The position numbers and the translations under genes were made by a program. A stretch of 63,713 bases of DNA, counting the filler, from Dugesia japonica (lineage: Eukaryota): assembly GCA_001938525.1 (NCBI GenBank). It is 6 parts of 6 records of this genome, joined end to end, with 100 filler letters (N's around TTAATTAATTAA, not from the genome) between each part and the next. Parts side by side here need not be neighbours in the genome. Positions count along the whole stretch, not along the records: positions 1 to 12,611 come from MQRL01636373.1; 5 more parts are not named here. One strand, given 5' to 3'. The number at the start of each line of letters is the position of its first letter. The first letter of the stretch is position 1. The notes under the pieces are model-generated. The model saw only the letters and a program-made list of their open reading frames with translations, did not search any database and was not told the DNA's origin. Of this stretch, positions 1-40,920 are shown in pieces.

Positions 1-2475
1 CTTGTCTGGGACTAAAGAAAATGGGATAAACCCGAGATTTTTTGACAATTTTTGAAAGTTTTTTCTTCTCGAATAATTTTTTCACCGAATAAATTCCTAA
101 ATAAAAAGCCTAAAAAATTTTCCCAACTAAATACATTAGAAAAATTTAAAAACAGTTAATCCTATTACACAAATTTTCACCGATGAAGTTCGAATATCAT
201 TAACAGAACTTCATTTAATTTATTAGGTGATTACGTAATGAGACAAGCCTCTATTGACCAGATGTGATTTATTTTATTCGATAAATGATAAAGTCTATTA
301 CAATTTGAGTTCAATAGGATTTCAACATAAAAATGAGAGTTTTATCTTGTACAATATAAGTATTGCTTTCAATAAAATCCTTCACTAGTTGCCTTCATCT
401 TTTCTTGCTTCTTGGTTCCTTCCTTGTTAATTAGCAAATCTGCGTGCTATTTGGTTTTGATGGGTTTATTTTTCTTTTAAATACCCAATTATCAGTCAGT
501 AAAATCAATCTTTTGACTATAACTTATACATTTTTATATGGTTTCATTAGTGACAAAATGAGTTTCAACATCGGAAAATAATGATTCCTCATAGGAAAAC
601 TATAGAATACGGAAGTTAAATCCGGTAAATTTTATTAAATTTAAAATTTTAATTAATTGCGGTAATATGGTTCTTATGCATTTAATTTGGATTAAGGTTT
701 AAATAATATGAATGATGCATGTATTTTAATTAAAATTAATAGTTAATTATATTAACATTTTTAATAAATCTTGTTTAAATTCATTGTTTGAATTGAATGT
801 TAACATTTCAAATTGCAAAATTTTATTGGACTTGGTTTAAAAATTACAAATACAAAATATAGACTATGTTTTAAAATATGTGTAAATATTCTTTAGGTTA
901 CTTAGAATTTTAATAAAATTATTTGAATGTTTAATAAATATACGAAGTTCCATAACCTTTATTGGATTTCATTAGATTTTCATCAACCATCAAACTGGAA
1001 CAATAAATAACATGAATTATGTTCCAGATTTTAAGAATTATATGAAAAATGTAATGAAATCAGGTAGGATTTATTAATTTTATAAAATGTTCACCTTTTA
1101 TTTTAATTATTAATAAAAACGTATGCATTTAATTTAATTTAACTTGTGAAATTTGATTTTATATGACTTTATTTATGATTTTATTGTTTCCTTTACGATT
1201 AATTTGAAACAATGATGATGATTTAAATTTTGATGATAAGTTTAATAAATACAGTTAATTTATTACAAATTGAATGTTTTAAATTTAAATTTTATACTTA
1301 AAAATTTAATCAGAGAACAACTAATATAAATTACTTGATTTTTCAATTTATTTAATCAAGGATAAAGATTGTTCATTTATAACCATGTTTTTTTACTTAA
1401 CATAAAATTCTCTATCGAATAGATACTTTGATGATCAAATTTAAGTTCCTTTTTATTTTTTCAAAATTAGATATTTTGATTAGAGACTATAATTATTAGT
1501 GATTGCAACGCATAATAACTACTTATTTTTAATTTATTTCATAGGGATAAAGTTTGATTATTTTTATCCGTATCTTTCCAAATTATTTATTGGATATATG
1601 GCCGAATCAGTAGTGTGTTTGATTCCTGTGAATGACCATTTAATTTTCTGATTTATCAGTTTCCCATAAGATTTGTTTATTTTATGTGATTATATTCAGA
1701 ATTAGTGAAAGATTCTCTATCTAAAAGACCCATTGATGTTCAAATTTAAGTTACTTTATTTTTTCAAAATTCAATGGTTTATCGTTGCATACTACCATTG
1801 TCCGGTCTGCAACCAATTATATGTTCTTGTTTTTATTTTATTTCATCAATAATTAAGTTTGATTATTTTTATCTTATTAATAATGACATTTGAAAATTAT
1901 TAAATTACTTTATTACTTTTGTAGCAGTTCTTTTACAGTTCATCAGTGGTGGTTCGATTCCTATGAGTGACTATTTCTTTTTTTCACTTTGTATTTTTTA
2001 ATATAATCTTTAATCTAAAAGGTTTGATGATTTTAGGTTTACATATTTGAAATCAGTGAAAGATTCTCTATCGAATTGATCCCGTTTTGACTAATTTTGA
2101 GATGCTTTTTCAATTTTCGAAAAAAAGTTACCAAATTCGAGAGAACAGCTGAATATCTTCGTTAGGAAGCCTTTTTGCTCAGACGATATTTTAACTTTGT
2201 ACAGTCACGTTTCCCTGCTGAATAAAATAATACTACATTTGAAATCACACGAGTAATGTACGCTGAGAAAATTGAGCATCAAAAATCAAAATTGGAGATT
2301 TTTCATTACAAAACTACATTTATTTCATCCTGGATAATTATTTTAAAAATTATTTTAAAAATTCTTAAAATAAAAATTAAAATCCATAATAAAAATAAAC
2401 TAATAAAATTTCGATAAAATCTAAAGAATTGAGTAACAAAGATCTATTGCATTGAATATATCAAGAAGTTATCAT

Positions 2476-2509
2476 GTTCCTGAAGAAGACTATTGTCGAA
2501 AATTTGAAC
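2476..2509 (+). ncRNA. Minimal type I hammerhead ribozyme, Penelope-like element terminal-repeat type
   Basis: GTTC-CTGAAGA-A-GAC TATT GTC-GAAA-AT-TT-GAAC: core boxes CUGANGA and GAAA, 3-bp stem II, 2-nt palindromic stem III, UH triplet, stem I GTTC/GAAC. Confidence 0.65.
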
Positions 2510-2666
2510 CTTTTATACAAATACATTTTATTTTGAACGAACCTTTTTCTTTATTTTAATGAAATCTCAAATGCGATCAATGGTTAAGTCCAACAATTAT
2601 TCTCACAATAAATGTAATTATAAAAATAATACTTTTAATTTTTATAATCTAAATATTTAATTTTAG

Positions 2667-2757
2667 GAATTAAACATTGAAGGAAATTTATTTGTTATCA
2701 ATATGGCATTTGCTGATTTAATAATAACAGGCTTTGTCGAACCAATGCATATTGTTG
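2667..2757 (+). CDS. Internal exon of a rhodopsin-family (class A) GPCR, ICL1-TM2, melatonin-receptor-like
   Basis: ttttag acceptor (AG 2665-2666) and gtaaat donor (2758) bracket ELNIEGNLFVINMAFADLIITGFVEPMHIVG, which contains the class A TM2 NxF..xAxAD motif. No other exons identified. Confidence 0.7.
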
Positions 2758-3091
2758 GTAAATATTTTATTTTTTTTAGTAAAACCAAATTTTTATTGAA
2801 TTAAAATAAACAATTTACCGTAAAAGAGGAACATGGTATCGCATAAGACAAAAATATTTATAAATGAAAATTATTCCACATCTTCCTTATTATAATTTTT
2901 AATTTAAACATTTTTTACAAATCTTATATTGATTAGGTTTGAATTATTTTAATTGACGATACCTTACTTATCTAGACTGAAAAGATTTGTCATTATTCAT
3001 TTGGTTTTGTTGTTTTCTCTGTAAATCCGATTTATTGGGTAATTATAATTATTTGCTATAGCATGTAGATAATAATGAACTAGATCTGTTC

Positions 3092-6000
3092 AGTAGATAG
3101 ATCTTAATAGTTACCTATTAACCTTTCTAAAATCACAAAATCCTGTGTAAAAGAGCGTGAAAATAATTCTAAAATTTACTAGAACATTTTCAAAATCATT
3201 GACAATTTACATGAACTTTTAAAACTAGTCAAAATTTCCAAACTTTTCTAATGTTGGTTAAAATTTACAGTAACTTTTTAATCATCATTGAAATCATTAA
3301 TCATAACATTTCTAAAGTTACTTAAAATTTACATAAACTTTTATGTAATAATGACTCTAATACTGACAAGTGACTAGATACAATCTACCAATTGTTCACT
3401 CAATCAATTGCACTTTGATTGTACTATCAATCAAACCAAATAATTCCGTCAATTTTTCACAAATTGTCCACCTTAATATAATAAAATCTTTTGAAAATAT
3501 AGGTTCATTTCAACTAATGTACATTAGTCACCTATTAATCATATTTAGTATAATATTAGTTATCATAAGATTTAAGTCATAGTACAAAACTCTCGCTATC
3601 ATTAAGTTTTAACATACATAATATTCGTTATCAACAGCTCTTAACATATACAATACTCGCTATTGTCAAGTATAATTACGTAATACTCGATATAAATGAG
3701 TAATAACATACACAATGCTCGTTATCAACAGCTATTAACATATATAGTTCTCACCATAATTAAGTGTTAACATACACAATAATCTCTATCGTCATTTACC
3801 TATTAATTATTCAGTTAATGGTTTAATCTGTTCATAGCTTATTTCATATACTCAACTCTATTATTCACACTGAATATATGTATACTTTACAACTAATAAC
3901 TCGAATAAACCGATTAATATTCACCATAATATAGTAATATCTCTAAAACAATTTATTTGTAATGTGTTTATTAATCAATTTATCACTAACTTGGAACTTA
4001 AATTTATTCAGTCATTAAACTTTTATCCGATTAAACCTATTATTTGCCTTTAAAATCAATTAATTTATTCATTTAAATATTTTTTTAAATTAATTAATTT
4101 TAAGTTAAATCTTCAAAGAAATTTATTTAAATTAAAATTATAATCAAATCAATAACTATTTGAGTAACTAATTTGATTCATTGAACTTAATTTTGAAATT
4201 ATTCTTATTTATTGTAATATCCTCATTGAAAATAAAAAAAATGATCCTTATTTATTTTAGTATTTACTGAATGTTAAACCATAAATTGTAAAGATTTGTC
4301 CTTTATATAATTGTAAAAGTTTCAATTTTATAAAGTAGTATCAATAATAAGCATCTATTTGTGAAAAGGCTGTTATTTTCACTTCTTATTAAAAATATCT
4401 AAATATTAATGTATTTCACACCTAAAATTTAAGTTTGAAATATTTATAATAAATAATTACAAATTATTTCATTGATTCAATCTTAATAAAATTTCATATT
4501 ATAAATCAAATTTCTATTAGATTTTTACGATAAAAATAGAACAATTTATTAAAAATACACGAAATATATTTTAATTTCAAATTACAAGTAAAACATATAG
4601 AACAGATTATATAATTAAATACTAATTAAACAGTAAATTTACTACTAGTGCAGAGTAAAGACCTGTAAAGAGTGAGAAACCCATTGATAACTAAAACTCA
4701 TTGCACAGTAAGCAGAACACTGATAACTGAACTCTAGTGGTCAGAGCATTGATGGCTAAAGAATAATGAAGAGTAAATTATCATCTAAAATAGTCAAAAC
4801 CACCCGAAAATAGATAGAATGGAATAAATCATCATCTATTTTTATATTCCTCGAAACTCCCAAATTAAGTATTTGTTTTTTCAATATAACATTTTATATA
4901 TAATATTTGGTGATTTTTAACCGTGTTATTCTTACTAACCGTAAATTTTCCTATCGTATAGTATAAATTTTGATAAATTTTGAGATAACTTTTAATTTTA
5001 AATAATTATTGAGAATTAAAAACTTTTAACTTTTTTAAAAATAATTTATTTTCACAAATTTCTACCGTATATATTCTTGAGCAGTAAAACATTCTTTATC
5101 TAATAGTACTTGTACTATTAAATGTGAATGAAAATTATAAAAAATAATTTTTTATTTTTGTCAATTAAGAATCCTCGGGATTTTTGACCATGTTTTTTCA
5201 AGTTTTCTCTATCAAATTCAGTTTGGTGATTTTAAGTGATGGTTTTTTTGATCGGTGAAAAAAATCTCTATCGAATAATGTATGTTTTGTTACGGTTTGA
5301 GAAGAAAGATTTTAAAAATTTGTCAAACATTCTAGGTTTTATCCCATTTTTCTACAGCTCCAGACAAGATTTAGTGATTTTTAAAATAGGTCAGTCATGA
5401 TCATCTTAAAATCCTCTATCGAATAGAATACGTTATAATTAAATTCCAGTTACCCATTTTTAAATTAATTTTTTCCTCGGGACTCCCTAATTAAGTACTT
5501 GTTTTTTCTATATAACTTTTTATGTATAAGGTTTGTTGATTTTTAATTATGTTATTAAAACTCACCGTAAACCTTCCTATTCAAAAGTATCAATTTTGAT
5601 AAATTTTGAAGTACTTTTGATTTTTTCGAAAAGTTTCACCAAAATCCGGGAGGTAGCAGTACATATTCGTTAGGAAGCATTTGTCCCAAGACGATATTTT
5701 AACTTTACACAGTCACTTCCTCCTGAATAAAATAATACCAAATTTATAACCATACGAGTTATGTACAGAGAGAAAATTGAGTACAAAAATTCAAATTCTC
5801 AGGTTTTTTCACTACAAAATCTCATTTATTTCATTAAGTACTTTTTAAAAACTTGAAAATACAAACAAATTCACCTTTTCACATGAATTTCCCATAAATT
5901 CCATCTAAACCAGCTAGCCCTAAATATTATCATTCAAATTCTCCAAAAACTTACCCTTGTAAGAAAATAAATGACCAAATAGTCCAAAATTAAACAAAAC

Positions 6001-6814
6001 AGACTAATGTGAGAAAAATTCAACATATATTACCTAAAGCGGGTAAATAATTGACCAAACAGTCCAAAACTGACCTAAATTCATATTTTCTGATAAAATA
6101 ATTCACTTGAACCAACAAAAAGTAGACCTTATTTGACCTCACCGAGCAAACTTTGGACAAAAAACCCTTAAAACCAATCAAAAATCGACCTCATCGAGTA
6201 AATTCCTAACAAAATCGCCCCAAAAATATCTAAAACCGACCAATTTTGTTCAAAATGACCAATCCCGAGGAAATAATTGACCAAATCGTAAAACAAATTA
6301 ACAAATTTTTCCAGTCCCGAGAAAACATTCGACTAAATTCACCTGAACCAACCAAAAATTGACCTTTTTCGACCTCACTGAGGAAACTTTTAACAAAAAC
6401 CATCTATAACCAATCAAAAAATGACCTCTTGGACCTTAATGAATAAATTCCAAACTTAATAGCCTAAAAAAATATTGCTGCTTAAAAAACCTGAAAACTT
6501 TTCCCAATTTTGCCGCAAAATAAGCTTGAAAAATTTTCCCAACTTAAACCACAGGAAAATGTATAGCAATTTAATCCTATTACGTAAAAATCTCGACGAT
6601 GAAATTATTCTTATGACATCATTTGGGTGCAAAAAAAATTTCCAACTTAATACACTAGAAAATATAGGGCAACTTAATACCATTTCGTATTATTACCTAA
6701 TATGATATCATTTTTAAAAATTCCCAACTAAATGCATTAGGATTAAATTTCATTACGTCACGGTGGTGGGGTTACCGATTGTCTGCTGGCTAAGACTGCC
6801 ACTATCTATCTACT
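3092..6814. mobile_element. Complete non-autonomous Maverick/Polinton-type element (3723 bp)
   Basis: Perfect 11-bp terminal inverted repeat AGTAGATAGAT (3092-3102) / ATCTATCTACT (6804-6814) flanked by 6-bp direct repeat CTGTTC (3086-3091, 6815-6820). AG...CT ends with a 6-bp TSD are Polinton hallmarks. No credible ORF inside. Confidence 0.75.
3590..3795 (+). repeat. Degenerate tandem repeat, unit about 32 bp
   Basis: About six copies of taacatacacaatactcgttatcaacagct-like units. Confidence 0.7.
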
Positions 6815-6904
6815 CTGTTCAGATGCAGAAAATGCGGGGAAATCCTCCCCTCTGTAAATTGGTTTAGTTAAAAATCATTTTTTCTGAAAACCTAAGTTAA
6901 TGGA

Positions 6905-7050
6905 ATAGAGGGATACTTGCGGTCTGTACCAACACACATATAGTAACCCACCTCCACTGGATTAGTGATGTAATGTTACTTAATCCTAATGCTTTTAGTT
7001 TGGAATTTAAAAAATTATGTCCTATTAGATTATATTACGAAATGGGATAA
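6905..7050 (+). repeat. Inverted, degenerate copy of the subterminal sequence of the 3092-6814 element
   Basis: gtgatgtaatgttacttaatcctaatgcttttagtttggaa (6965 on) matches the reverse complement of 6721-6761; the match extends to 6681-6720 vs about 7008-7045. Confidence 0.7.
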
Positions 7051-7444
7051 TTTGGTATTATTTATTTTTTATTATTTTACACATAAAATTTTTTTATGTA
7101 TTTATTTTATTATTATTTATTTATTTTATTTTACAAATAAATAAAATTATATAAATAATAAATAATAAAACACATAAAGTATGTCATAAGATTAATTTCA
7201 TCGGTGAAATTTTATGTAATAGAGTCAATTGGTATAGAATTTTTCAGACTTTTTTAGCTGGCGAGCAAATTTTATGTGCTATTACATCACTTTTAATCGT
7301 GTTTTAAAAGGTTTGGTGAATTATTTTGAATATGCTAATTCTAAATTTTAATTGATTGAATACAATTTCTTTGGAAATTTAATTAATTATTTAATTTGAA
7401 AGGTAAATATTAGGTTCATGTATAATTGGTTAGAATTTTAATAA

Positions 7445-7640
7445 ATGAAAGAATACATTTATATTACAAATTGATGATTAATAGGTGAATAAACAAATTA
7501 GAAATCTAGTTTTAAAGAAAAGTTTTATATTAAGATGAAAATATGAAATGATTAATCGTTTATTGGTTTGTAAAAATGATATGGATACGAAAACCAAGTT
7601 GGATATAAGCATTCCGAATAATCAATCAAGACAAACATTA
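7445..7640 (+). pseudogene. Possible Polinton integrase C-terminal remnant
   Basis: Degenerate YYKL..GE and FVK*YGY segments resemble the Y.L.D..GE.I.G.FY and VKW.GY (chromodomain) motifs; lies directly upstream of a penton gene. Confidence 0.3.
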
Positions 7641-7703
7641 CGATGAAATCAAGTAATTTCTATACACTTTTACCTAGTAATAGTAGTTCATCAGTTCATT
7701 TAA

Positions 7704-10031
7704 CCCTTAACCGCCCAGTAGTGTCTCAGAGACATTGTTTAAATTTCGTTTTCATAGTACATCTAAAGTTTTGAATGTATACAAAGTAAACTTCATCTAA
7801 TTTATCACTATAGTCTTGTCAACCAAAATTACTAATTGAATTCATTCAAATCAAATTATTAGTTTAGCAATTATTAAAAGGTCATAAATGTAACACAAAG
7901 ACCCAGTTGTGCATGATAGACACAACATAGAGTATTATAAGGTTAACAGTAATAAAATAACCTTGGTTATGTAGTTTACTTACACAAATAATTATAAATA
8001 TAATTTCAATAAATTCGAAAAATATTGTAAAAAAAATATAAGTCAAATCTTATTACTTAACATCAAATAATATAGACATTTAGAAATTATTAATAATATG
8101 GTTGTAACTGAGAAGGAGCTGCTAATTGTATTACAGAACTTAAATCATGATGANAATTCTGACAGTGACAACCAAGATTTTATCCCAGAAGTAGAAAGTG
8201 AGATTGAAGACAATTTTACAGAGGTTGGATCAGAGAAAAGTGATGAACAGACATGTAGTGACAATGAATATTTCCCAACAGAAGAGAAACATGTTTCAAA
8301 ATCAATTGTCCAATATTTAGGTAAGGACAAAACTATTTGGAATGCGGAACCACCAATACCTAAACGAACTCCCATTCATAATATAATCAAGGGTAGTATT
8401 AATATGGTTATCATTCCACCAGGAAAAATAGTTTGTGACACAATCGATATGTTTAATCTATTCATTGACCAAAGCTTTCTGGAAATAATAGTGAAGCATA
8501 AAAATGAAGAAGCCAAGAAAGTATTGAAAAATAAATGAAAACAAATAGATGCCATTTTATGGTTTATTAATTGCTAGTGCTGTCAACAAACAGAATAATT
8601 TGGATTTCACAGAATATTGGGATTTAATGTTTGGTTGTCCTAATTTTCGTGCTACAATGAGTTAAAATAGATTTGAGGATATCCAACGTTTTTAAGATTC
8701 GATAATAAAGCTACAAGGTCTCAAAGAAGATCAAAAGATGAATTGGCGCCTATCAGAGATCTTTGGACCGATATCAATATTAAGTTTCAAAAGTTCTATT
8801 TAACTGGTGAAAACTTAAAGATTGACGAACAACTTATTCCTTTCAAAGGCAGAGTATCATTTAAACAATACTTGACATCTAAGCGTGACAAGTATGGTAT
8901 GAATGTATGGTGGATTTGTGATAGTGAAACAAATTATCATCTTGCTGGTTTACCATACCTTGGAAAACTTGAACAGAGTAAGACAGAAAATTTAGCTCAT
9001 CATGTTGTACTTACATTATGTGAACCTTATTATGGAACGCATAGAAATATTACATTTGATAACTATTTTACAAGCTTTGAGGTTGCACAATCATTACTTC
9101 ANNNNNNNNNNNNNNNNNNNNNNNNNNNNNNNNNNNNNNNNNNNNNNNNNNTAGAAATATTACATTTGATAACTATTTTACAAGCTTTGAGGTTGCACAA
9201 TCATTACTTCACAATGGTCTGACAACGGTCGGTACTCTTAGAAAAATAAACGCTGTATTTCAGACAATTTTCAGCCAATTAGAGGACAAAATATTGAAAC
9301 TAATATCTTTGGATTCTGCCAAAAATGGCCTTAGTTTCATATTTATTAAAAAAGAACAGAGCTGTTATTTTGTTATATACTATGCACCATAGCAAACAAT
9401 TTGACGCTAACAACAAAAATAAATCGAAACTAATATTTATTATAATCAAACAAAAGGTGGTGTTGATACAATGGATCAGTTAGCACATGAATACACAACT
9501 CGGCGCAAAACATATAGATGGCCCGTAGCGTTTTTCCAAAACATGCTTCATATTATTGGGATTGCATCTTTTGTAATATGGAAAAAAGTGTATCCTAGAT
9601 GGAAAGAAATAAAGAAAAATGCACAAAGAAAACTTTTTCTACGAGAAATAGCAGCCGAATTAGTCAGTCCTCACATTCAGAGACGAGGGAAAAAGAGTTA
9701 ACTGAGTTCCACTTGAAAGCCATGTTGGATATTGCAAGTACAAGTCAACAGCAGTTTAAAGATTCAATCGTAAAAGAATCCGCAGTAAAAAGAAAAAGGT
9801 GTCACATAAGTCAGTGTAAAATTGCAAGGAATTCAAAACAATGTTGCAATACATGTATTCAAAATGTTTGCCTTGAACATTCTACAAAACAAATTCAATG
9901 CAAACATTGTTCTTCTCTGTAATAAAAATAAATTTTTTTATTATTTGTTATAATTTAAAAGATTTTATATGTAGTGTCTGTCAGACACTACTGGGTGGTT
10001 TTGGTACAAAAGCTTTCTGGGCGGTTAAGGG
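7704..10031 (+). mobile_element. Full-length piggyBac DNA transposon (2328 bp)
   Basis: TTAA TSDs at 7700-7703 and 10032-10035; perfect 15-bp TIR CCCTTAACCGCCCAG / CTGGGCGGTTAAGGG; subterminal inverted repeat 7711-7734 vs 9975-9998. Confidence 0.96.
8098..9922 (+). pseudogene. piggyBac transposase, disrupted
   Basis: Acidic N-terminus, IDEQL, TFDNYFTS and GGVDTMDQ (DDD triad), RWPVAFF, C-terminal Cys-rich domain KRKRCH...CNTC..VCLEH..CKHC. Several stops and frameshifts. Confidence 0.93.
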
Positions 10032-10388
10032 TTAAATAATGCTGCTAGTAATTACATTGTTGAGCTTCAAAATACAATTTACATGGATGGTAGTTGGAAA
10101 GTAGCTATTTCACTTTTTATATTCAACAATGCCAATTTATATTTAATCTAGAATTGAATATGTATTATTTAAACTAATTTAGAAGGAACTAATACTTGAT
10201 GTTAACAACAAAGAAAAAAACAGTGGTTTTAACTGTTAATTCTCTAGATAAATATAAAGATTATACAGAAACCGATAATCAACTTTGCTGAAGACTCAAA
10301 AAACTCATTTGACGTTACATTTTAGAAAGATTAACATTAAATATTGATATTGTTTCATGCAAATAGTCAATTAAGAAGATATTTTCAC

Positions 10389-10800
10389 ATGAAATCAAAT
10401 AATTTCTATACACTTTTACCTTGCTATAAAACTATACTATTTCATCTAAATAATACTGCTAATAATTATATTGTTGAGCTTTAAAATTTTATTTCTCATG
10501 GATAGCAATTGGGAAGTAGACATGATGAATTTCAATTTTGTATATTCTGACATGCTGATGTACAGTCAATATGGGATTGAATATGTATTTTTTAAACTAA
10601 TTGAGAAAGAACTAATAATCGATGTTAACCACAAAGAAAAAACATTGCTCTTAACAGTTAATTCTCAAGATAAATATACAAATATTACGAAAACAGATAT
10701 ACATTTAAAATACAAATATATGATATTATTTAGTAATGACAATAAATTACACAGTTTATCATTTGATACTTTAGAAAATTCAGAGAAATTTTCAAAAGGT
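10389..10800 (+). pseudogene. Second tandem Polinton penton copy, truncated
   Basis: atgaaatcaaataatttctatacacttttacctt... is a diverged paralog of 7643-7699 + 10036-10260 without the piggyBac; contains MDSNWEV. Confidence 0.65.
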
Positions 10801-10809
10801 AAAGCTCAA

Positions 10810-12295
10810 ATCTTCCCCGTTCGATATGGCGTAAGCCATTCAATATTTTGAAAAATTTCATTACCATCATTTTTTAAAATTTTATAGCTCCTATTGTGTA
10901 GTTTATCAATTATAGTGTAAGAACCATCATATCGTTATTCTTTTTTATTTCTAACAGCAATTTTACTCCAAACACTGTCACAAATTTTAAAACTCCTTTC
11001 TGTATTATTATGCATTTGATTTGATATATCCTCATTGGTTAGAAATTTATCTGAGCTTTCAAATCTAACTATATATTTATACTTAGCTTTGTTTCCAAAA
11101 TTTATTTCTGCAGGACTTATTTTAGTACTTTTATGCATTGTTGAATTCATAGTAAATTTCATTTGAGGTAAACATTCTTCCCAATTTCTGAATAATCTAT
11201 CTTAGATACAGCAATATATCCAGTCTGTTCGCAATACAATTTTTTTCTGTATAAATAGTGCTTAAAGTGTTGAGTAAAGTTAAATACTGAAAGTAATTCT
11301 TTTCTCGTAATGCAGTATCCAACTTCCTTTTTTGACATACTTTTTCAACCGTAAGCAATGACTCTTTCTCTTTCAAAATTATCTTTTTGGGACAATACAG
11401 CACCAATACTGTCAAAACTTGCGTCCGTATCTAGAATAAATTCACGACTGAAATCAGGATGACATAATATAGGAGCCTTTGACATTTTCTCTTTCATTTT
11501 CTCAAATGCAATTTCACATTAAGATGTCCAAATGCTTTTCTTTTCTTTCGTACTTAATAAAGAGTCTGGTGGTTTTGCTAGCTGATAATATTCTTCAATG
11601 AATTTCTTATGGTAATTAGCTACACCTTAAAAGCTTCTGACGTGTTTAACGCAACACGGTTTTAAAATGTCGTTATAGATTCCACCTTATCATTATCAGT
11701 CAATATTCCATCAGTATTAATTATGTGACCTAAAAGTTTTATTTCAGATGCCAGAAATTTACATTTTTCAAAATTAATTCTTAAATTAGATTTAGATATC
11801 CTTGTAAAAAGCTTGTCCAAAATTAAAATATGGTCATCAATTGTTTTCGAAAAAATTAAAATATCATCCAGATAGACCAAACTTTCTTTCCAATTCATGT
11901 CTCCTATAATAATTGTAATTAACCTCTGAAATGTAGATGGAGCGGTGGGTATTCTAAATGGCATTCTATTATAATAATATTGCCCATATTTTGTAGAGAA
12001 TGCTGTTTTTATTTTTTATTCATCATCCAATTCAACTTTAAAATATGCATTTCCAAGATCTATTGATGAAAATTACTTAGCTCTATATAGTGAATCTAAC
12101 ATTTCGTTCACATTCGGAATATGGAATGCAGGTCTAACTGTATGCTTATTTAACAACCGAAAATCCAAGCACATTCTAATTTTGGCTGAATTCTTCTTTT
12201 GAATACATACAATTCGAAAATTCCATGGAGATTCACATTTCGATATTATTTTATTTTCTTCCCAATTCTTAATAATGTCCTTAATTTTCTCATTC
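10810..12295 (-). mobile_element. Ty3/gypsy pol remnant (RT, RNase H, integrase C-terminus)
   Basis: Minus strand: SPWNF, RMCLDFRLLN, MPF..PTAPSTFQR, VYLDDILIFS, ILDTDAS, RKELL, W...LP..KF.MN...H.ST.ISPAEI; purine tract GGGGAAGA near 10811-10818. Confidence 0.9.
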
Positions 12296-12398
12296 TAATT
12301 GTAAAAATAGATGTTATTTAGTCGCATTAATTGTAATCGGCAGTTTTTTAAAATATATTTGGTTTTGTGTAGCTACTTCTTTTTAGTTATAAAACAAC

Positions 12399-12611
12399 AT
12401 GGCGTCAAGAGCAGTTTTGGAAATATTTATCAAATTCCTTCAAGGAAATACGAATTTCCAGAAACAATTCCAAATAAATGAAAATATTCATGATCATATA
12501 TCGGAGATGGAGAAGTTTTTTAGAGATCAAAACATTGCTAACCCAACTGAAAAATCTGAAAAATTGATGAACAGTTTGGAAGAAAATGCAAGGTTAGAAT
12601 TAAGATCAATT
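12399..12611 (+). mobile_element. Retrotransposon gag N-terminal fragment
   Basis: FQINENIHDHISEMEKFF...EKSEKLMNSLEENARLEL resembles a Gag capsid region; cut by the contig end. Confidence 0.45.
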
Positions 12612-12711
12612 NNNNNNNNNNNNNNNNNNNNNNNNNNNNNNNNNNNNNNNNNNNNTTAATTAATTAANNNNNNNNNNNNNNNNNNNNNNNNNNNNNNNNN
12701 NNNNNNNNNNN
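12612..12711. other. Artificial contig spacer (44N-TTAATTAATTAA-44N); identical spacers at 22187-22286, 31320-31419, 43353-43452 and 55273-55372
   Basis: Identical 100-nt construct five times; the 12-mer gives stop codons in all six frames. Confidence 0.97.
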
Positions 12712-12713
12712 AA

Positions 12714-13060
12714 AATGATTTCAATAATTTATTCACAAAGATATCGAGACATCGGAATGTGACTGTGATATTCATTACTCAAAATCTATTTCATCAATGA
12801 GGTAGTCATAGAACCTGCAATTTAAATGTACACTACTTGGTTCTATTAAAAAATTCTAGAGATTAAACTGTTATTGATTTTCTAGCATGACAAGCATATC
12901 CAAATAACAGACAATTTCTGATTGAATCATTTCAAGAGGCAACAGAAATACCTCATCAATATTTATTTCTTAACTTTACACAACAATGTTCTGATGACTA
13001 TAGAGTGAGGACAGATATACTCAATCCAAATGGTATCACAATATATAAACAAAACAGATA
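12714..13060 (+). pseudogene. Polinton FtsK/HerA-type packaging ATPase, C-terminal half
   Basis: One frame reads NLFTKISRHRNVTVIFITQNLFHQ*GSHRTCNLNVHYLVLLKNSRD*TVIDFLA*QAYP...EATEIPHQYLF...RVRTDI, with three in-frame stops. Confidence 0.85.
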
Positions 13061-13499
13061 CTTTTCTTACTTTTATAAACATGACAAAATAAAAAAATTC
13101 GTAGTTGATCAAGTAACTAATGATGTTGCGAAACGACAAAGAATCTCTTTTATGAAGAAAAAGAATGGAAAAAAGAGAAAACAATCGCATAAGAAAGAAG
13201 AAAAGCAGAAGTTGCTAGTAAATAAATGGAAGCAATTAAATATGATTAAAAACTAGCAAACAGAAACTGAGAATGATAAATGGATATCATTATTAACAAA
13301 TTAATTAATGTAGATTAGAGTGTGGCCAAAACTAAAGCATTGCAAAAACATAAAACATTATTAACGCTTGTAAATATAAAAAATAGATTTTCAACGAAGC
13401 CATATTACTAGTGATATAATAATGAATAATTTAACATTTGACACTATTGAACACTTAAAAAGATTTTCATTCAGTCAAAAGCCAACAATAACATTGGAA

Positions 13500-14140
13500 A
13501 ATAGTACAAATTTGGCTTTGAAACATTTTTATATTCTCTTTGATTCCTTTTAGAAAGGATGATTCTGTTGAAAAAATAAAATTTACGTATTTGTATGTAT
13601 CTGTTACTAAACATTACTTCCGATTTGAAAATGAATTGTATATAAAGGATATAAATCAACTAATTTAAATAGTTAAAGAAAAGCCTTTCAATGTTATTTA
13701 AAACTTTTATGCTATTTGAAAAAACTATCAACTATTTGAATTTAAAATGGGAAGATGAATTAAAAGTGTTTAATTTGACAAAATCTTAACAAAATCATTA
13801 GAATTAAATGAATCAAAATTTTGTCAAATAAATGTTGATGATGTACAACTACAATATAAATATATTAAGAAACATAGAATATTGAAGTATTATAATGAAA
13901 TGTTCATCTATTGCAGTATTGTTAAACCTATTGTTGTTTGTGATGTTAATGTTCCTTTATTGAAATCAATATGGATAGAAGAACATGATAATTGTTGATC
14001 GTTCAATATATATACATATTTCTTCATCATATTTAAAACAATATAGAAACCAATAAACGCGATGATAGTGAAGAACTAATCAATTTTACTGAAGACTCAA
14101 AAACTCATTTAACGTTACATTTTGGAAAAATTAACTTTAA
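13500..14140 (+). pseudogene. Polinton penton, C-terminal remnant
   Basis: EMFIYCSIVKPIVVCDVNVPLLKSIWIE (about 13897-13980) and ELINFTEDSKTHLTLHFGK; the latter is near-identical in DNA to about 10275-10340. Confidence 0.7.
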
Positions 14141-15089
14141 ATTAATTCGTCGAAGAAGTCACTTGATTTTTAATAGTTATTATATGATTTTATGGGTTCA
14201 GAATTTTTATGTTTATCACTTTAAACCATTTCGAGTCCATTTTCTCTAGTTTTCTTTAATTTTCAGGTAAACTTCTACCCATTTCTACCACTTTCAGGCA
14301 AATTTCACCATTTTTGGGCAAATTTCTCAGTTTCAGATCATTTTCACTATTTTCAGGTCATTTTCACTATTTTTTACTTTTACCCTATTTCCCATCATTT
14401 TTATCTTATTTTTAACATATTTCTCCTTATTTTATTTATATTTATAAAATAAATTTTGAATAGCAATAATGACACTTGGTTTAATTTATTAGGTGATTAT
14501 ATAGTAAAGATAAGTTCCCATAAATAAGTTATGGTTTATTTTATTGGATAAAGAATTATGTCCATTATACTTTGAGTTNAATATGGTTTCAACATGAAAA
14601 ATAATAGTTTTAGCTTGTGAAAAATGTGTATTCCTTCAATTAAATTCCTTCATTATTTAACTTCATCTTTGCTTGCTCATCGGTTTCTCTGCGTGCACCT
14701 TGGTTTTCATGGGTTTTATTTTCTTTTAAATACCTAATTATCAGTTAAGTTGTTAGTAAAATCAATCTTTGAACTTTAATTTAAATATTATTCTATTAAT
14801 CCTATATGGAAAATATAAGTTTCATCATTGAAGAATAATGGACTTATCATAAAAATATTTTTTGGACTTATCATAGAAACTTCGAGTTTAACCATTGTAA
14901 AATATGAGTTTGGGCATAGAAAATATTTAATAGAGTAAATCTAGTCACTAATTATATTACATTTATTCTATACATACATTCATTTAATATGCTTAATTTA
15001 TACACTGTTTGTCATATTTTTAGCCATTTCCCAACATTTACTCTATATAACCTATTTTAGCATATTTTCTATTATTTTGTCTTATTTTG

Positions 15090-17700
15090 TTTATTTTCTA
15101 TTGATTATTCAGTTAAGGATTAAATTTATTCATCGCTTAAATCTTATAGTCAGCTCTATAATTCATACTAAATATATACTTTACAACAAATAATTGGTTA
15201 ATTATTCACATATTTTCACCTTAATATAGAAAACACCTTTGAAAATAGACATTCTAATACGCTTTATTAACCAATTAATCATCAAATTGTAACAATAAAA
15301 TTCTAATCAATTATTCATAAATCTAATCTTTACCTTTGAAATTAATTAATTTATTCATTTAAATATTTTAAAATTAATTAGTTAAATCTTTATAGAAATT
15401 TTATTCAATCAAAGTAAAATTTAGTACCAACATATAAAAAATTATAAATTCAACTTTAAAATTGTAATATCCTAATTGAAAAAAAAATTAACCTTCTTTG
15501 AATTTAATTTTAGAATTCTTCTGAATTTACTGAATGTGAAGCCATAAATTTTAAAGGTTTTTCATCTTTATGATTGTAAAATTTTAAATTTAATAAAGTA
15601 GTACCAATAATAAGCATTTATTTGTAAAAAAGCTTAAATTTTCACTTCTTATTTCGAATGTAAAAAGTTATTGTATTTTACACTTTAAATTAAAGTTTTA
15701 GATACTTTTCTGATAATTATTTGAAAATTATTAATCCATCATACTTAATTTAATCAATCAATAATATTTTCAATGAATAGTTACAAATTATTTCAAATAT
15801 TTCAATGCTTAATAAATTGGCTATTATAATTTAAATTTAACCATAAAAATATATACATGGAATCTAATTTTTTTTAAAATTACCTTTTAAAATTTATTCA
15901 AAGCATTATTCAATTTACGAACAAAAGCATAGTTTTAATTAAATTACTAATTGAAAATTAATCAATTCATTATACTTAATTTAATCAATCAATTATATGA
16001 ATTATTTACAATAAATGTTTATAAATTATTTCAATGAATCAATTTTAATAAAAAATTCATATTGTAAATTAAATGTTAATTAGGTTTTACAATAAAAATA
16101 GAACACGAATTAAAATAAACATGAAATCTAAATTAATTTCAAAATTACAAGTAAAAATATAGAACAGGATAAATAATTTAATATTAATTAAACAGTACAT
16201 TTACCACTAGGGAAAAGTGAATACCATCAAATAGAGAAAGAAAACCAGTAAATGATATAAAAGATATGCAAGGAGTGAAAAAACCACTGATAATTAATGC
16301 TCGCAGAGTTTTGATGTCTGAGGACTAGTGATGACTGAGGTGTGAGAAAAGACCAATGAAGAATAAATTATCAACCAAATTGATTAAAAACCCATCCAAA
16401 AATAGGCTGAATCTATCGCATTGAGTAAATTTGTAATCCTATTTATATGTTGCTCGGGGACTTCGAAATAAAGTACTTGTTTTTTCTATATAATTTTTTA
16501 TCTAAAAGGTTTTCTGATTTTTGCCTGTGTTATTCGTACTAACCGTAAACGTTCCTATCGACTAGTATCAATTTCGATAAATTTTGAGTTACTTTTGATA
16601 TTTTCGAAAAATGGTACGATATCCGAGGGGACAGCTGTACATATTTATTAGGAAGCATTTTCTCGAGACGATATTTTCATTTTATCCAGTCACTTTTCTT
16701 TTCCTGAGTAAAATAATGCTAGATTTGAAACAAGATGAGTTATCTGTTTGCATAGATTTGAGTGCTAAAATCTGAAATTTGAGATTTATCAACACAAAAC
16801 ATCATTTATTTCATTAAGTATTAACTTTAACGATTTTAAGTTAACACATTTAGAATAAGCAAAATATTCTCTATCGAATAGTCAATTTCTAAGCATATTT
16901 TGACAAGAAAAAGCTTTTCAAAAAATCCTGTGCAAAATACTGGGAAACCCAAAAATGATTGCCGTAAAATTCTGAGCAGTTTGGTATAAATATCTTTGAA
17001 ATCTGAGATAGAAAATATTTTTATCAAAAATTTAGGCAGTTCTCCCGGATTAGAATACAAATTTCATTTAAATAATTTTCATATTGTTTAAACAACATAG
17101 AGTGTTTACCCGAATTTAAACAAAAATTAAAATTTTCTTTTAAAAACTTGAAAATATAAAGAAATTCGACTTTTCACACGAATTTCCTTAAAATTCAACC
17201 TAAACTAACCAGCACGAAGAAATTATCACTCAAATTCAACTAAATCCAAACTTTGTGAGTAAATAATTGACTAAGATTGTCCAAAACCTATCCAAACTGA
17301 CTATTCCTGAGTAAAAATTTAAATAATTTCACATTTATTTAACCAATTTTTACCAAACCGAGGAAATATTTGACCAAATCGTCCAAAACTAACTTAAATT
17401 GGTTATTCCAGAGGAGATAATTCAACCAAATCACCCAAAAGTCATTCAAACTGACCAGCTCGAAAAACATATTTGACCAAAATTTATCTTATTCAACCTC
17501 ACCGAGCGAATTATCAAGAAAATTCATTTGAACCAATCAAAAATTGATCTCATTGGACCTCTCCGAGGAAATTCCAGACAACAATTGACCTCATTCAACC
17601 TCACTGAATAATTTCCTAACCAAAAAGCTTGAAAAATAATACAGCTTAGGAAGCCTAAAAAATTTTCCCAGCTAAAAAGTTTAAAAAATACTACAGCTTA
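15090..17700 (+). repeat. Diverged second copy of the interior of the 3092-6814 element
   Basis: Collinear similarity, e.g. 4260-4440 vs 15525-15700, 5480-5840 vs 16450-16820, 5845-6550 vs 17135-17700. Further partial copies at 1-360, 2030-2340 and 43455-45420. Confidence 0.8.
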
Positions 17701-17709
17701 AAAAGCCTG

Positions 17710-17860
17710 AGTAGTAGGATAGTAGCGCAGTGTATAAAAGGTTATCTATGATTTTTCCAATGTAAATAGGTGGTGGCACACATTTGCGTGCTATTACGTA
17801 AGTGATCTATGATTTTTGTAATGTAAATAGGCGACGAACAAAATTTATGTGCGATCACAT
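17710..17860 (+). mobile_element. Maverick-type terminus (left end of another copy)
   Basis: AGTAGTAGGATAGTAGCGCA followed by aatgtaaataggtggtggcacacattt, matching the reverse complement of 55510-55631. Confidence 0.55.
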
Positions 17861-19339
17861 AATTTTTGCTCGTATTTGTTGTGTGCCTTATTCGAATTTT
17901 TTTGAAATTTTTAGATTTTTGCGAAGTTTTAAGATATTTTGAAAGTTTTATCTAATTTTTTCAAATTTTAAATTTCGAGCGCATTTTTTATTTTAAAATT
18001 ATTTAGGGAATTTTGCCTTGTTTTAATATTTCAATTTAATTTATTTTGAACATTAATATTTAAAATCTAATAAAAAAAATTTTTAAATAGCAAATAATAA
18101 TTATAAATTATAAATCAAAATGATATATTAGAAACACATATTAAATTATACATATAGTACGCACAAAAATAAATTCAAAATAATAATAATAATAANAAAT
18201 AAGAAATTTCAATATAGTATTATATAAGAATTTTACTCGATTAATTTTAGATTATAATTTTATTCGATAGATTTTCACGGGTAATATCTTAAGCAGTTAA
18301 TTTAAAGAGTTTTAATTGGGTTAAAAAAGTTTGATTAATTTTTAGCAATTAATTTAGAATTCAATTTTTTATATAAGATTTTCACCTGTAGTATTTGTTC
18401 ATTTGAATTTAGGTAGTTGATTTTTACAATAGATTTTAAGTAGTTATTTTTTACCTTATAATTTTTTTAATAAGATTTTAACATAGAGTACGTTTTTAAT
18501 AGTTAATTTTTGCTTGGATTAATTTTCAAGTAGCTAAGTCTTCATTTTTTAATTAAATAATAAAACTTAGGCTAACGTTTATTTTCTACAATTTGACATG
18601 GGTTTATATTAGAATTTTAAGAAAGAGTAATTCAAATAGGTTAAGTTTAAGTAGTTAATTTTTATGTAGGTAAAGTTTTCATATAAAATTTTCACTGGTT
18701 TAGTTTTGAATTTTACCTAGTTTTATTTAAGTTTTTCTTTAAGACTTTCACATTGATTAATTTTCCCTGATTGTATTTTATTTTTATTCCACTAATATTT
18801 TCATAGATTATTTTTGGTTGGTAGTATATTTAAATTTCACGCTGGTAATATTTTACAGTTTTTAGTATAAAGATGTATTGTATTAGTTTGAAATTTTAAT
18901 GTCTTGGTTTAGATTTTCATATTTCGGTTTTTAATTTTAAACTGTAGACTTTGAATTTTATTATAATAGTTTCAGATTTCATGTCATAAGTTTAATATTT
19001 TACATGCTGAGCATTAATCTTTATGTATTGGTTTAAAATTTTTATGTATTATTTTTGGTTTTGTATGATGGATTATAAATTCTTTGCTTTTGATTACAAT
19101 TTTTATTGTGTTGGCTTAGAAAGTTTAGCGAATTGGTTTAGATTTTTAATGTATTGGTTCCNAATTCATAGGTATTCGTTTGGATTTTTATATGATGATT
19201 TATAAGTCTTGTTAGGTAGTTCTTTAATTTATAATTAATTTTCAAAATCACAACTATTTTTAGAAAATATTTATTTCAATTCACACATCTATTTCTATTA
19301 TATAATTATATGAGAATAGAACCATAAAAATATTTATCT

Positions 19340-21435
19340 ACCAAAAAACCAAGAAAATTTTTTGGTTGTAGAAATGTGAGCCACGTTAGAAGGTTATGTC
19401 AAGAGGAGAGGTGTAAAAGATTTTAAAATGGTTGAGGTAGGGTAGAAGAGTGTTACACAAATTTGAAAATGAATAGAACAACCGAAAAATTTGTGAATAA
19501 TGGAGGGTCAAGAAACCGATATAATCGAATTCATGCGATTGCACATAAAGAAGTCAATACAAACGATTAATATGAGGAAGTATGTGAAAGTGATTTCAAA
19601 GACAGTACCCAAAAGACAAAGCTCCACCAGTAGATGAGTTGGTTGGAACCCTTCATTGTTAAAGGAAGTGAGTAATTATCTTCAAAAGTTCAAAAAGTGG
19701 GATGATATCGCGAAGTTATAGACAAAGTATACAGGTTCTTAAAGAAGGAAAATTTTGCGGATAATAAAAAATGAGAATGGGTTAGAAGCCTAACGGCGTG
19801 AAGAAGTTGAAAGGCTTCTTAAGAATTTGTAATTACTACAGGAAGTTAATAGAAAACTACGCAAGAAAATCAATGATCTTATAACAGTTGTGTAGTGGAC
19901 CAAGCAACAAGTAATTAGAATGGACAGATGAAATAAACGTTACTTTTGAGTGTTTGAAGAAAGCTCTAATGACTGCGTCAATATTGTGTTTTCCAGACAT
20001 AAAAAGAGAAGTTATATTAGATACAGATGCCAGTTTCGATAGAATTGGAACAGTTTTGTCACAGAAAGATAAAGAAAGCAGAGAAAGAGTTGAAAGAAAG
20101 GATCATGCAAAAGGATATTTTGAATCACGCAAAAAGTATTATTGACTGTGTAGTATTTCTTCATGCGTTTCAAACATTACTTGTACAGTTTTAGATTTAG
20201 TGTTAGAACAGATCATAAAGCTCTAACTTTCATGATGACGACGAAGAAATCAATTACGTCACAATTTCAGACATGGATTAATTATCTGAGTAGTCGAGAT
20301 ATTGTGTTGGAATATAGAAAAGGAATTCAACATAGTAATGCATATATGTTATCTAGACCAAGATGGGAAGTATGTGTAAAATTTCAGATAGCACTTGAAG
20401 ATGTCAAGGAAAGTAAGATTAAAACAAGAGTACTGAACGCAATTGAAAAAGAAAAAAGTATCAATTAAACATAATCAAGAAAATTTAAATTTTGGATGAC
20501 AAAATACGTAGAACAATAGAAGAAGTACACAAATTATTATGTCACGCAGGATTTGAGAAGGTGTACAAATATTTTAGAGATAAATACAGTGCAAAGAGTT
20601 TGTGGAATCCAATACAGACTATAGTTCGTAGTTATGAAATTTGTCAGAAGACCAAAATAGTGACGACAGCAACTAAAAAGAAAACAAAGAGACTAGAAGC
20701 TACCAATTTATTTAAACATATTCATAGATATATGTGTATCATTGTGGAAATCAAGTGGACGGAAAAAATACATACTTGGAATAATAGACCACTTCAGTAC
20801 ATATCTGGTAATTATAGCCCTGCCTAGAAAAGACTAATGAAACAATACAAAAAGCTATTTTTGAGCAGTGGATTTTGAGATTTGATTGTCCAAGAGAAAT
20901 AAAGCTAGATTGTGTGAAAAGCCTTTGAATACAGAGTTATGAGAGAGTTTGCACAGAAGTTAGACATTAAGCTGTGTTTTTCGAGTCCTTATCATTACAA
21001 TGTAAATGGACAAATTGAAAAATAGTTCAGGACAGTTCGAGATTTGATTATTGCAACACTTTTGGATAGAAAGACAAGAGATTGGACAGATACCTTATCG
21101 GAAATATAATTAACAATGAACGCGACAAAGCAGAAGACGACTAGGAAGTGCCCAACTGAGATTTTATTTGAAAAATAATTAGTAGAGAAAAGTCGTAAAA
21201 GTCAGACGTTTCATAGAAAAATAAGAAAAGAATTTCAGAAGTAACTAAAAATAGAGAATTCAAAGTAGGAGATTATGTATTTATCATGATAGAAATAAGA
21301 ATTAAAAGCCAAAACAGATTTAAAAGTCCTTATTGAATAATTGAGAGAATTCACGAAAGAAAATATGCGGTGCAAGGAGTAAAGGAACGGTGAAATGTGG
21401 ATAAATTTAAAACGTTTCTTATGAAGGCGGATTTA
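19340..21435 (+). mobile_element. Ty3/gypsy remnant (zinc knuckle, RNase H, integrase; RT core deleted)
   Basis: GCRNVSHVRRLC, LKGFLRICNYYRK, ILDTDASFDRIGTVLSQ, RTDHKAL, HKLLCHAG..CEIC-like HHCC, FSSPYH..NGQIE, purine tract near 21422. Confidence 0.88.
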
Positions 21436-22734
21436 AGTAAATAATTTTAACTTAATAATTAATTCACCCAATAGACATCATTTAAATTGCAGATAAATAT
21501 TTTTATGGTCTATCCTCATATAATTATATTATTGAGATAGCTATGTGTATTGAAATAAATTATGTCTAAAAAACATAAAANNNNNNNNNNNNNNNNNNNN
21601 NNNNNNNNNNNNNNNNNNNNNAAATTACATAAATCAAACGAAAATTATAATCTTACATAAAAATCAACTTAGTAAAATTAACTTAAAAACTTCAAAAAAA
21701 CTAACACTTTCAATTATTTGATACAATTAAAACCTAAAATATACTCAATCTACTTAATACATTCAATATAATCTATTAATTCAACAAATTTATCTAATTT
21801 AATAAAATCAATTAATACATTCGACCTATTAATTTCATATAGATTACTTGATTGCTCTATTCAATATAATCATAAAGCCAATGAAAACTGTGAGCATAAT
21901 GCACGTTATAATCTAAGTTAAATATGCTTAATAAACTAATAAACATTGAAAAATCTAAAAAACCAACTATACTAATAAAACTAATACATTGAATTTACTA
22001 CACTAATCACCATAGATAATTCGTTTAATATGTTTACTTCATCAAATACAATCAATTATATCCAATCTTTATGTTTAATTCACTGAACCTTAGTAATGCA
22101 TAAATTCATTAAATAATTATTTAAATCAATCAGATTCTATGCCAAATGAATTGAACTTAAATGTAACACATAAACTCAAAAAAAAANNNNNNNNNNNNNN
22201 NNNNNNNNNNNNNNNNNNNNNNNNNNNNNNTTAATTAATTAANNNNNNNNNNNNNNNNNNNNNNNNNNNNNNNNNNNNNNNNNNNNATATTTAATTTTAA
22301 AAATATTGCATGGTCAATCACATTAATCTTAGCGCCATTATCAACAATCAACATTAAATTCGTTATTTAATTTTAACTTTAAACAGAGTCTTCCTGACAT
22401 TTTATTATACACAATCTTATCGTCATAATTATTTATTAAATTTACATTATTTAAATTTNTATTTAAAACTGAAACATCATTGGAAATTAAAATNTTATCT
22501 ATAAAATATTCATTTTTATATTTTAAAGTTTTGTTAAATAAATCATCAATCGACAAATATTTACATTCATTCAGTGGAACAGGCATCATCATAGATATTC
22601 ATAGAACAAAAATTTGAACCACAAAAAATTGAAGAACAAAAAATTGAAAAACAAAAAATTGAAGATCAATTGATGGAGACCAACCCCCATCCCCCCTTGC
22701 CCAGATAAATGCAACTGTTCTAGTGCTGAAATAT

Positions 22735-30188: not shown

Positions 30189-31852
30189 GTTAAAAATTAA
30201 AATATTATTAAAACAAAGGGATTTTAAATTTCAATATTCACATGACAATTTTGATTTTTAGAGCTTTGTGATAATTGAAACTTTCAAAATGCTTACTTCG
30301 TCGAACTTAATTTGATATAATGATATGCACATTAGGTAAAATCTAATTATTTTACAGAATAAATAATTATCTCATGAAAAAGCATTTTCAGACAAATAAT
30401 TTTATTATGTACATAATAAGAAAATGTCACTATATAAATATTTTAATATTAATTCTTTAGCGATTATAAAGGATTTTTCATTAAATTTTACAAAAAAATG
30501 AAATTATTGCAAAAATTAATATAGGGTAATTTTTCAATGGCGGCATTAAATTTGAAAAAACGTTAAATGTATAAAATTTTGAAAAACAGTGACTGTTCGT
30601 ATTATTTGCAATATTCTACTTTTTTAATATATTTTCCACGTTTATATTTTAAATTCTATCAAATAGAATTATTCAACCCAAAATGCACTTCGCATTTTAA
30701 AAATATATTATTCGCATGATAAAAATCTATAATTAAATAAAACACAAGATCGGTATGCCTATAATGGCGTTTAAATCAAATATTTCGAATTATGAAGATT
30801 AATTATACATAATAAAATANNNNNNNNNNNNNNNNNNNNNNNNNNNNNNNNNNNNNNNNNNNNNNNNNNCAAAACTTTGGAAAACATTCTTAATTCTTAT
30901 AAATAATCAATAGTTCATTTATTAATGTACTCAACAAATTTATTCATACATATCTAATACATATTTACTAATTTAGTGCACGAATCATTTCATTTAGAAC
31001 ATTGACGCAATATTGTGGAATATTTTTAGTGCTAGGAGGTGAATTAAATTGCAGATTAAATTTTCCACGCAAATGAATTTCAAACAGATTGCGTCATTCT
31101 GTAAACATATAGAAAGGTAACGTACACAAAACAGGTTTAGTAATCATTGATAAGATTCACAAACTAAACAAATGCTATTTGAGGATAGACCAATTAAAAT
31201 TTTAAAACAATTTTTCATATAGTGTATGCAATAACTTTGATTTTTATTTAATTAAAATAAGATAAGGCTTCGATCAAAACAAAACAAAATTTATTTGTAA
31301 AAAAAGTTCAAATTTTCGANNNNNNNNNNNNNNNNNNNNNNNNNNNNNNNNNNNNNNNNNNNNTTAATTAATTAANNNNNNNNNNNNNNNNNNNNNNNNN
31401 NNNNNNNNNNNNNNNNNNNAACCATATCAATTATTTCATCATCAATAAAGACCTAATTTGGCTGTGCATCAATCAGTTTCTCGGTAATAATATTATCATT
31501 TGGTTGAGTATTGTTAACCTCTCTCTTTAAAGTTGCATCTATTTCAACAATTTCAATTGGTTTTCATCTATCTCTACATCACTTTCTGGAAAATCATCTA
31601 CTATTAAATAATTATTTAGATTAATATTAGTTATTATTACCTTGAACCGATGAAGTNNNNNNNNNNNNNNNNNNNNNNNNNNNNNNNNNNNNNNNNNNNN
31701 NNNNNNNNNNNNNNNNNNNNNNNNNNNNNGTATTTATGATGCACACATGGATTAATATGTATAAATTTGAATATTCCCCCGGGAACCTTTAATATTATGT
31801 GTAAGTAGTAATATAACACTGTATATTCACTCAAGTAAAGTACAGTAAGCAA

Positions 31853-32065: not shown

Positions 32066-32109
32066 CATATAAAATAAAAAATAAAAACATTAAATTAATC
32101 CTTTATAAA

Positions 32110-35798: not shown

Positions 35799-35815
35799 TT
35801 TTTTATCTTAAGAAA

Positions 35816-36304: not shown

Positions 36305-36335
36305 AATAATACTATATAAAATAGCTTACGGACAA

Positions 36336-40919: not shown

Positions 40920-40920
40920 A

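Follow-up and report, generated by a model that had tools for sequence, protein, structure and literature searches.

Can a Polinton (Maverick) transposon move when one of its two terminal regions has been reduced to a few base pairs? The question is raised by a 3,723-bp unit in a 63,713-nucleotide stretch of the Dugesia japonica genome (GCA_001938525.1), the whole of which is called the window here. The first-pass annotation described the unit as a non-coding Maverick-type element with terminal inverted repeats (TIRs) of only 11 bp and a perfect 6-bp target site duplication (TSD). A bounded insertion at 3086–6820 is real, and the unit is probably derived from a Polinton without being an autonomous one, as judged from its sequence and its relatives. 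Several contigs make up the window, linked by 100-bp spacers (12612–12711, 22187–22286, 31320–31419, 43353–43452 and 55273–55372; each a 12-bp six-frame stop linker with 44 N on either side). Neighbours across a spacer are therefore weak evidence, and linkage to Polinton genes was judged on neighbours within a contig only.

The unit is bracketed on the plus strand by CTGTTC at 3086–3091 and 6815–6820. Inside these TSDs lie the left TIR, AGTAGATAGAT (3092–3102, plus strand), and its inverse, ATCTATCTACT (6804–6814, minus strand), where the conserved end of the family starts. The 11-mer has two exact copies in the window, both at the ends of the unit, and the similarity between the ends stops at base 12, in agreement with the annotation. 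The annotated TIR and TSD sequences are correct, but their lengths are not the only ones that fit. The exact direct repeat flanking the unit is 9 bp (TCTGTTCAG, 3085–3093 on the left), so that TSDs of 8 and 10 bp fit too. There are three symmetric readings: TSD 6/TIR 11, which is perfect; 8/10, which is equally perfect; and 10/9, with one mismatch.

Taken by itself, a pattern of TIR and TSD is weak evidence in DNA of 25% GC. The window holds 10 exact pairs of an 11-bp TIR with a 6-bp TSD, and 20 shuffles gave 0–7 each. When six or more of the 17 bases had to be G/C, two pairs were left in the window (the 3.7-kb unit and 35367/52865) and none in the 20 shuffles. The end pair of the unit is real because position 6814 is a repeat boundary known independently, from related ends at 6904 and 55631. 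Given this right end, a match as good as that of the left 17-mer is expected by chance with p ∼3e-7 in the 6.8 kb that precede it.

The related ends also bear on the length of the TSD. The first position is A at all three other ends (6904, 17710 and 55631), which favours the 6-bp reading. At 55631, where a related element ends in a Polinton major-capsid relic, the 8- and 10-bp readings put an in-frame stop of the relic at the junction, before 85 open codons; under the 6-bp reading the same codon is a chimera of the junction, again in favour of 6 bp. From the repeat unit that is interrupted at 17710, AA would be expected and AG is present, which counts against a reading with TAG termini. A 6-bp TSD with AG termini is thus favoured by the related ends, the TSD evidence itself coming from one locus. 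The termini would then be AGTAGA...TCTACT, that is AG...CT with a repeat-like motif, and Polinton ends begin with AG. All 17 paired positions of TSD and TIR are intact, an outcome with a probability of 0.02–0.06 at the 15–20% divergence between copies, and the insertion of the unit is therefore younger than its split from the other copies.

The interior is non-coding, as annotated. There are 14 open reading frames (ORFs) of at least 45 aa, the longest of 80 aa, and none of the 14 had a Pfam match. A tblastn search with 775 ORFs taken from 103 public loci that carry pPolB gave no match in the unit and matched nine other places in the window, and an Rfam scan of positions 1–20000 gave no match. 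Genes for pPolB, integrase, ATPase, protease and capsid were not found in 3092–6814, and the unit is thus not an autonomous Polinton. Nor does it have the long TIRs of Polintons (46 bp to >1 kb), its own being 11 bp with unrelated sequence beyond.

The interior was also said to be the dominant repeat of the window. This holds for the right 3.0 kb but not for the left 700 bp, and the unit is lopsided. When the unit was cut into 150-bp tiles, with a threshold taken from 380 shuffled tiles, 28 of the 31 tiles from 3792 on had a copy elsewhere (70–90% identity) as against one of the six tiles left of 3800. The one left-side tile with a copy matches interior sequence of like orientation, and a resemblance of this kind is seen at 3437–3541. 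The left segment (3103–3799, plus strand) has no second copy in the window and contains short tandem sub-repeats at 3174–3343 and 3609–3746. The plus strand is C-rich both in this segment (skew −0.33) and at the right end (−0.32), and the segment is therefore not a decayed inverted copy of the right end, that is, not a decayed left TIR. The non-coding shared segment (3800–6814, plus strand) has internal direct repeats of its own at 4838–4999/5464–5625 and 6100–6197/6336–6433.

In a permissive self-alignment shuffled sequence scored up to 101 bits, and weaker matches were disregarded. Three of the interior copies listed in the annotation were recovered, all on the plus strand: a partial copy at 1989–2328, a collinear one at 15098–17709 that is truncated by a nested element (matched interior 15098–17670), and one at 43453–45350, which a spacer separates from a Polinton gene cluster at 31915–43140. 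The fourth, said to occupy 1–360, shrank to matches at 1–73 and 103–190. A second repeat, of 71% identity, stands at 183–603 and 14449–14858, where it precedes two copies of the shared segment on their left side; the 3.7-kb unit differs in sequence at this place.

Related termini had been reported near 6905, 17710 and 55621. The right end of the unit is related to the 6904 end with E 3e-13 and to the 55631 end with E 5e-3, but that at 17710 is related to the family solely through the 55631 end. The first belongs to a second, internally shorter element lying back to back with the unit (6904–7574, plus strand) and reading inward to a Polinton gene. The AGTAGTAG end at 17710 (17710–17790, plus strand) is that of a nested, more distant relative, which faces away from the 15098 copy and interrupts it, and at 55373–55631 (plus strand) a related element, inserted in the major-capsid relic, has its right end. 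A second non-coding family related to the 17710 end was seen at 17710–19300, 21638–22182 and 53634–55072, and Gypsy relics are enclosed by an 83-bp inverted repeat with its arms at 19257–19339 and 21491–21572. There are thus three right-type ends in the window (6814, 6904 and 55631) and a related fourth (17710), and one left end. Only one copy of the unit with both ends occurs in the 63.7 kb, and when the 55631 end was paired with that at 6904 or at 17710, none of three offsets gave a TSD. Since right-type ends recur and the left end occurs once, the abundant repeat is probably better read as Polinton terminal DNA than as proof of an abundant non-autonomous family. That family, which the annotation had taken the unit to represent, is not established by the window.

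The affiliation with Polintons is better supported than was first argued. The annotation placed two of the related termini next to Polinton gene relics; the support found here comes from the 6904 end. It faces inward, its homology to the family extends to 7574, and a Polinton gene begins 69 bp further on, with no spacer between. This is the relic of a gene in the minor capsid position (7643–10148, plus strand; ATG at 7643), broken after 19 codons and containing a nested piggyBac element (7704–10031) with a TTAA TSD, perfect 15-bp TIRs and its transposase in pieces. The downstream piece of the gene matches (E 1e-5) ORF 10416 of L066, a complete public 15-kb Polinton (1–15051) that has AGTAGT...ACTACT ends, pPolB, ATPase and integrase. 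A profile built from 60 of 120 listed homologues of this ORF (245 found) matched the downstream piece with E 8e-4 among 2,645 six-frame pieces and gave no match in shuffled DNA. When the gene was read through its break with X the score was 30.9 bits (E 3e-8), the best of 1000 shuffles reaching 4.1 bits. The minor capsid label itself is founded on gene order, the position of the minor capsid gene in PMC8097293 being the place of ORF 10416. No Pfam or PDB match was obtained for it, and its Atlas neighbours are unnamed Preplasmiviricota clusters. The Polinton gene relic has a tandem duplicate of 72% identity (10033–10400 and 10447–10811), the second copy with a 133-aa open frame for which no homologue was found. 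The ORF at 10450–10851, a DNA duplicate of the 10033 region, was not counted, having no homologue, no Atlas match and profile E values of 9–13.

Further linkage within one contig is given by the 15098 copy, which lies 1.1 kb downstream of a relic of the packaging ATPase and of another minor-capsid-like piece (12726–13995, plus strand). The 55631 end, one of the two that the annotation had set beside Polinton relics, is a different case. It faces away from the neighbouring Polinton genes and begins ∼100 residues into the capsid gene (major-capsid relic 55634–56031, E 1e-4 and 7e-3, followed by a protease relic at 56010–56441), and therefore represents an insertion into a Polinton. As to a gene-bearing host Polinton with homologous ends, the 6904 end leads to a gene relic and no complete two-ended element with a TSD was found in the window. 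Given that the 6904 end runs into a Polinton core gene on the same contig, and that public pPolB elements start with AGTAG (neither of which the annotation had cited), a Polinton affiliation of the unit is, on these comparisons, likely.

We consider that the unit may be a gene-less Polinton derivative that was inserted in trans as a 3.7-kb molecule, a reading to which we give about an even chance. Polinton integrases produce TSDs of 6 bp (PMC8097293, PMC10045372 and PMC12220804), and a range of 5–8 bp is given in PMC10748475. The retroviral-type integrase of a helper Polinton would insert the unit, the long right end carrying a normal origin and integrase site, and the terminal 11 bp of the left end would suffice for joining by the integrase. 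Polymerase and integrase would both be supplied in trans by the helper copy. The short end might go back to an early change of template by the protein-primed polymerase, shortly after initiation, yielding a defective mini-replicon. This is the weakest step of the scheme, and the idea leans on adenovirus and phi29 biology. What favours insertion in the 3.7-kb form is that a deletion must have ended at base 11–12, and a random deletion should seldom end within 11 bp of an element end. Such a deletion would also have to leave behind the left 700 bp, in which neither traces of genes nor similarity to the inner part of the 15098 copy is seen. That the unit belongs to a multi-copy mini-Polinton satellite, formed in the manner of a defective interfering genome through premature template switching by the protein-primed polymerase, with one terminal region complete and the other end cut down to 11 bp, is a more tentative proposal and rather doubtful on the present sequence.

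Several observations weigh against insertion of a Polinton derivative in this form. The left end is seen once only in the window. The 8-bp TSD is as perfect as the 6-bp one, the ends at 6904 and 55631 have A instead of G as their second base, and AGTAGA agrees with the known Polinton motif (AGT)2 at five of six bases. The window is rich in Polinton relics, and the adjacency at 6904 could be a coincidence. In a set of 134 intact vertebrate Mavericks no TIR is shorter than 46 bp (range 46–1,447 bp, PMC8097293). Finally, no autonomous element with the exact ends of the unit and a TSD was found among the public pPolB loci.

The foremost alternative, somewhat unlikely in our judgement, is collapse in place. 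A full-length Polinton with a 6-bp TSD would have lost the DNA from base 12 to ∼700 bp inside its right terminal region; the unit would never have been mobile in its 3.7-kb form, and the abundant repeat would be Polinton terminal DNA. The left end and left 700 bp without a second copy, as compared with recurring right-type ends, agree with this, as do the Polinton relics that adjoin the shared segment and a large internal deletion in the 6904 copy as well. Degraded loci also make up 96% of vertebrate Maverick loci (PMC8097293). However, the terminal region may be as long as 3 kb, and the breakpoint would have to fall at its base 11–12. Aligned with the interior of the 15098 copy, the 700-bp piece scores 32, which is noise level, and it has no coding remnant. 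The preserved TSD and TIR, moreover, point to a recent insertion, with little time for collapse. With a single copy in the window, spread as a family and one collapsed copy are both compatible with the data. Mobilisation in trans through a minimal cis end, as claimed by the annotation, thus goes beyond what one copy can support, being inseparable here from deletion in place.

Superfamilies other than Polinton are improbable even when taken together. The better of them is a non-autonomous cut-and-paste element of hAT, P or Merlin type, with the 8-bp TSD TCTGTTCA and a 10-bp TIR starting with G, which we hold to be quite improbable. Elements of these types have short TIRs and sub-terminal repeats that differ between the ends. 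The 8/10 reading is perfect, the TIRs are short with unlike tandem sub-repeats at each end, and the window contains a relic at 58779–59278 that resembles a hAT/Buster-type transposase and is matched by an ORF of public locus L091. Merlin elements also have 8-bp TSDs (PMC10045372). Yet such an element would have A one base beyond its boundary at all three other ends (∼0.05 by chance), the in-frame stop would fall exactly at the 55631 junction before the 85 open capsid codons, and a Polinton gene is reached from the 6904 end.

A non-autonomous element of AcademH or MuDR type, with TAG ends and a TSD of 9–10 bp (10 bp with one mismatch), is more improbable still. Academ ends are TAG, and TAG is common to all five ends; the exact flanking repeat is 9 bp, although asymmetric, and the 10/9 reading is symmetric. 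TSDs are 9–10 bp in AcademH and 4–10 bp in MuDR (PMC10045372). Against this, a mismatch in the TSD is required, the repeat unit at 17710 predicts AA where AG is seen, and the stop-codon argument at 55631 applies here too. The bases outside TAG (AG, AG, AG, AA and AA) are non-random, and a Pfam scan of 31 long ORFs, with no search dedicated to these transposases, gave no Academ or MuDR relic. A chance match at the left junction, with no bounded element at all, is negligibly probable given the conditional p of ∼3e-7, despite the 10 pairs of 11 + 6 bp in this AT-rich window as compared with 0–7 per shuffle.

Among the 103 public pPolB loci, three open with AGTAG or GTAGTAG at a contig edge, L015 and L030 starting GTAGTAG. 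L066 resembles the family of the unit in its AGTAG-starting ends, and its ATPase, minor-capsid-position and major-capsid ORFs match relics beside family ends; it differs in being 15 kb and autonomous, with long TIRs, 44% GC and no DNA similarity to the unit. L066 comes from a public metagenome and carries telomere-like TTAGGG runs within its TIRs. Comparison of the unit with all 103 loci at the DNA level gave two matches of 24–36 bp (E 0.005), which is noise. A pPolB contig of 24% GC, L103 (132–4766), has AGTAGATAG 180 bp ahead of its first ORF. As a parent end this is a 9-bp match, unproven as an end, and is kept as a lead. The pPolB-bearing contig L025 (1–9821) is bounded by 500-bp inverted repeats that start with TAGCATTG and not AG. 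The end motif was met at three loci in viral contigs, all of them the same stretch within sequence of 41–42% GC, with identical flanks, and was put down to chance. The spaced end pattern had no match in metagenomes, and when the pPolB piece of the window was searched alone in viral contigs none of three candidates was confirmed. Of 11 sequencing runs listed, six from two studies contained a share of 0.08–0.11 of the sequence words, which is evidence neither for copy number nor for an empty site.

Non-autonomous Polintons carry N1 in their names by Repbase convention. The zebrafish families Polinton-1N1_DR, -2N1_DR and -4N1_DR (10.4–15.5 kb, 1,874–5,744 copies; PMC9341512) are Polinton derivatives, as the unit probably is, and are catalogued separately, whereas the unit measures 3.7 kb, has a TIR of 11 bp and is known from one complete copy. 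Intact vertebrate Mavericks are 12.7–24.6 kb long with eight core genes, a 6-bp TSD and the end motifs (AGT)2, (AG)3 or (AC)3A (PMC8097293); under the 6-bp reading the unit shares the TSD length and an AG-starting, repeat-like motif, but its motif is AGTAGA. Butterfly polintons without polB stay mobile with terminal repeats of ∼2 kb (bioRxiv 10.1101/2025.02.07.637071), and unlike the unit they retain full TIRs and other genes. IS3EU/GingerRoot and Ginger2 elements have a 6-bp TSD made by an integrase-like transposase (PMC10045372, PMC6839031 and PMC2836005), but their termini are TA..TA or TG..CA, and the unit, with AG..CT termini if its TSD is 6 bp, does not belong with them. Non-autonomous copies are absent from the anole (PMC3014272). 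A short-TIR non-autonomous Polinton does not appear in passages of PMC6431247, PMC5718144, PMC8504770, PMC8969392, PMC10748475, PMC12220804 or bioRxiv 10.1101/2024.01.15.575659, a set outside which Repbase and the founding papers lie. Relative to the catalogued non-autonomous Polintons, the small size and 11-bp TIR would be new, absence from print not being established.

Other features of the window can be listed briefly. A short C-x2-C motif lies in one frame of the right flank at 6821–6870, and the unit may have split a zinc-finger relic there. A Polinton gene cluster fills the contig at 31420–43352, with zinc-finger/pPolB in three ORFs, a 751-aa ORF with internal repeats, a minor capsid gene (37476–38186) and a protease (38368–38674). 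No integrase, ATPase or major capsid was seen in it, and its ends lie beyond the contig. At 48020–52603, a 38% GC island adjoining a pPolB relic (52289–53071), a Gag-like ORF with zinc knuckles stands ahead of two long ORFs of 397 and 641 aa, which lack a Pfam match, and there is no reverse transcriptase. By eye, 2680–2760 is presumably an exon resembling the second transmembrane segment of a class A G protein-coupled receptor, with a GT donor at its end.

The long TIRs of Polintons are usually assumed to be necessary. The mechanism of Polinton excision is described as unknown in PMC2836005, and how the elements replicate is likewise unsettled. If the left end proved to be single-copy, the unit would be an ordinary decayed transposon. 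If a natural family moves with one 11-bp end, it would set the minimal integrase site and disfavour an obligatory panhandle of paired TIRs, and such a family would be missed by pipelines that require TIRs of at least 100 bp, as in PMC12220804. If the unit is indeed a mini-Polinton satellite, 11 bp would be enough for the Polinton integrase, and neither long TIRs nor a panhandle would be needed for mobility.

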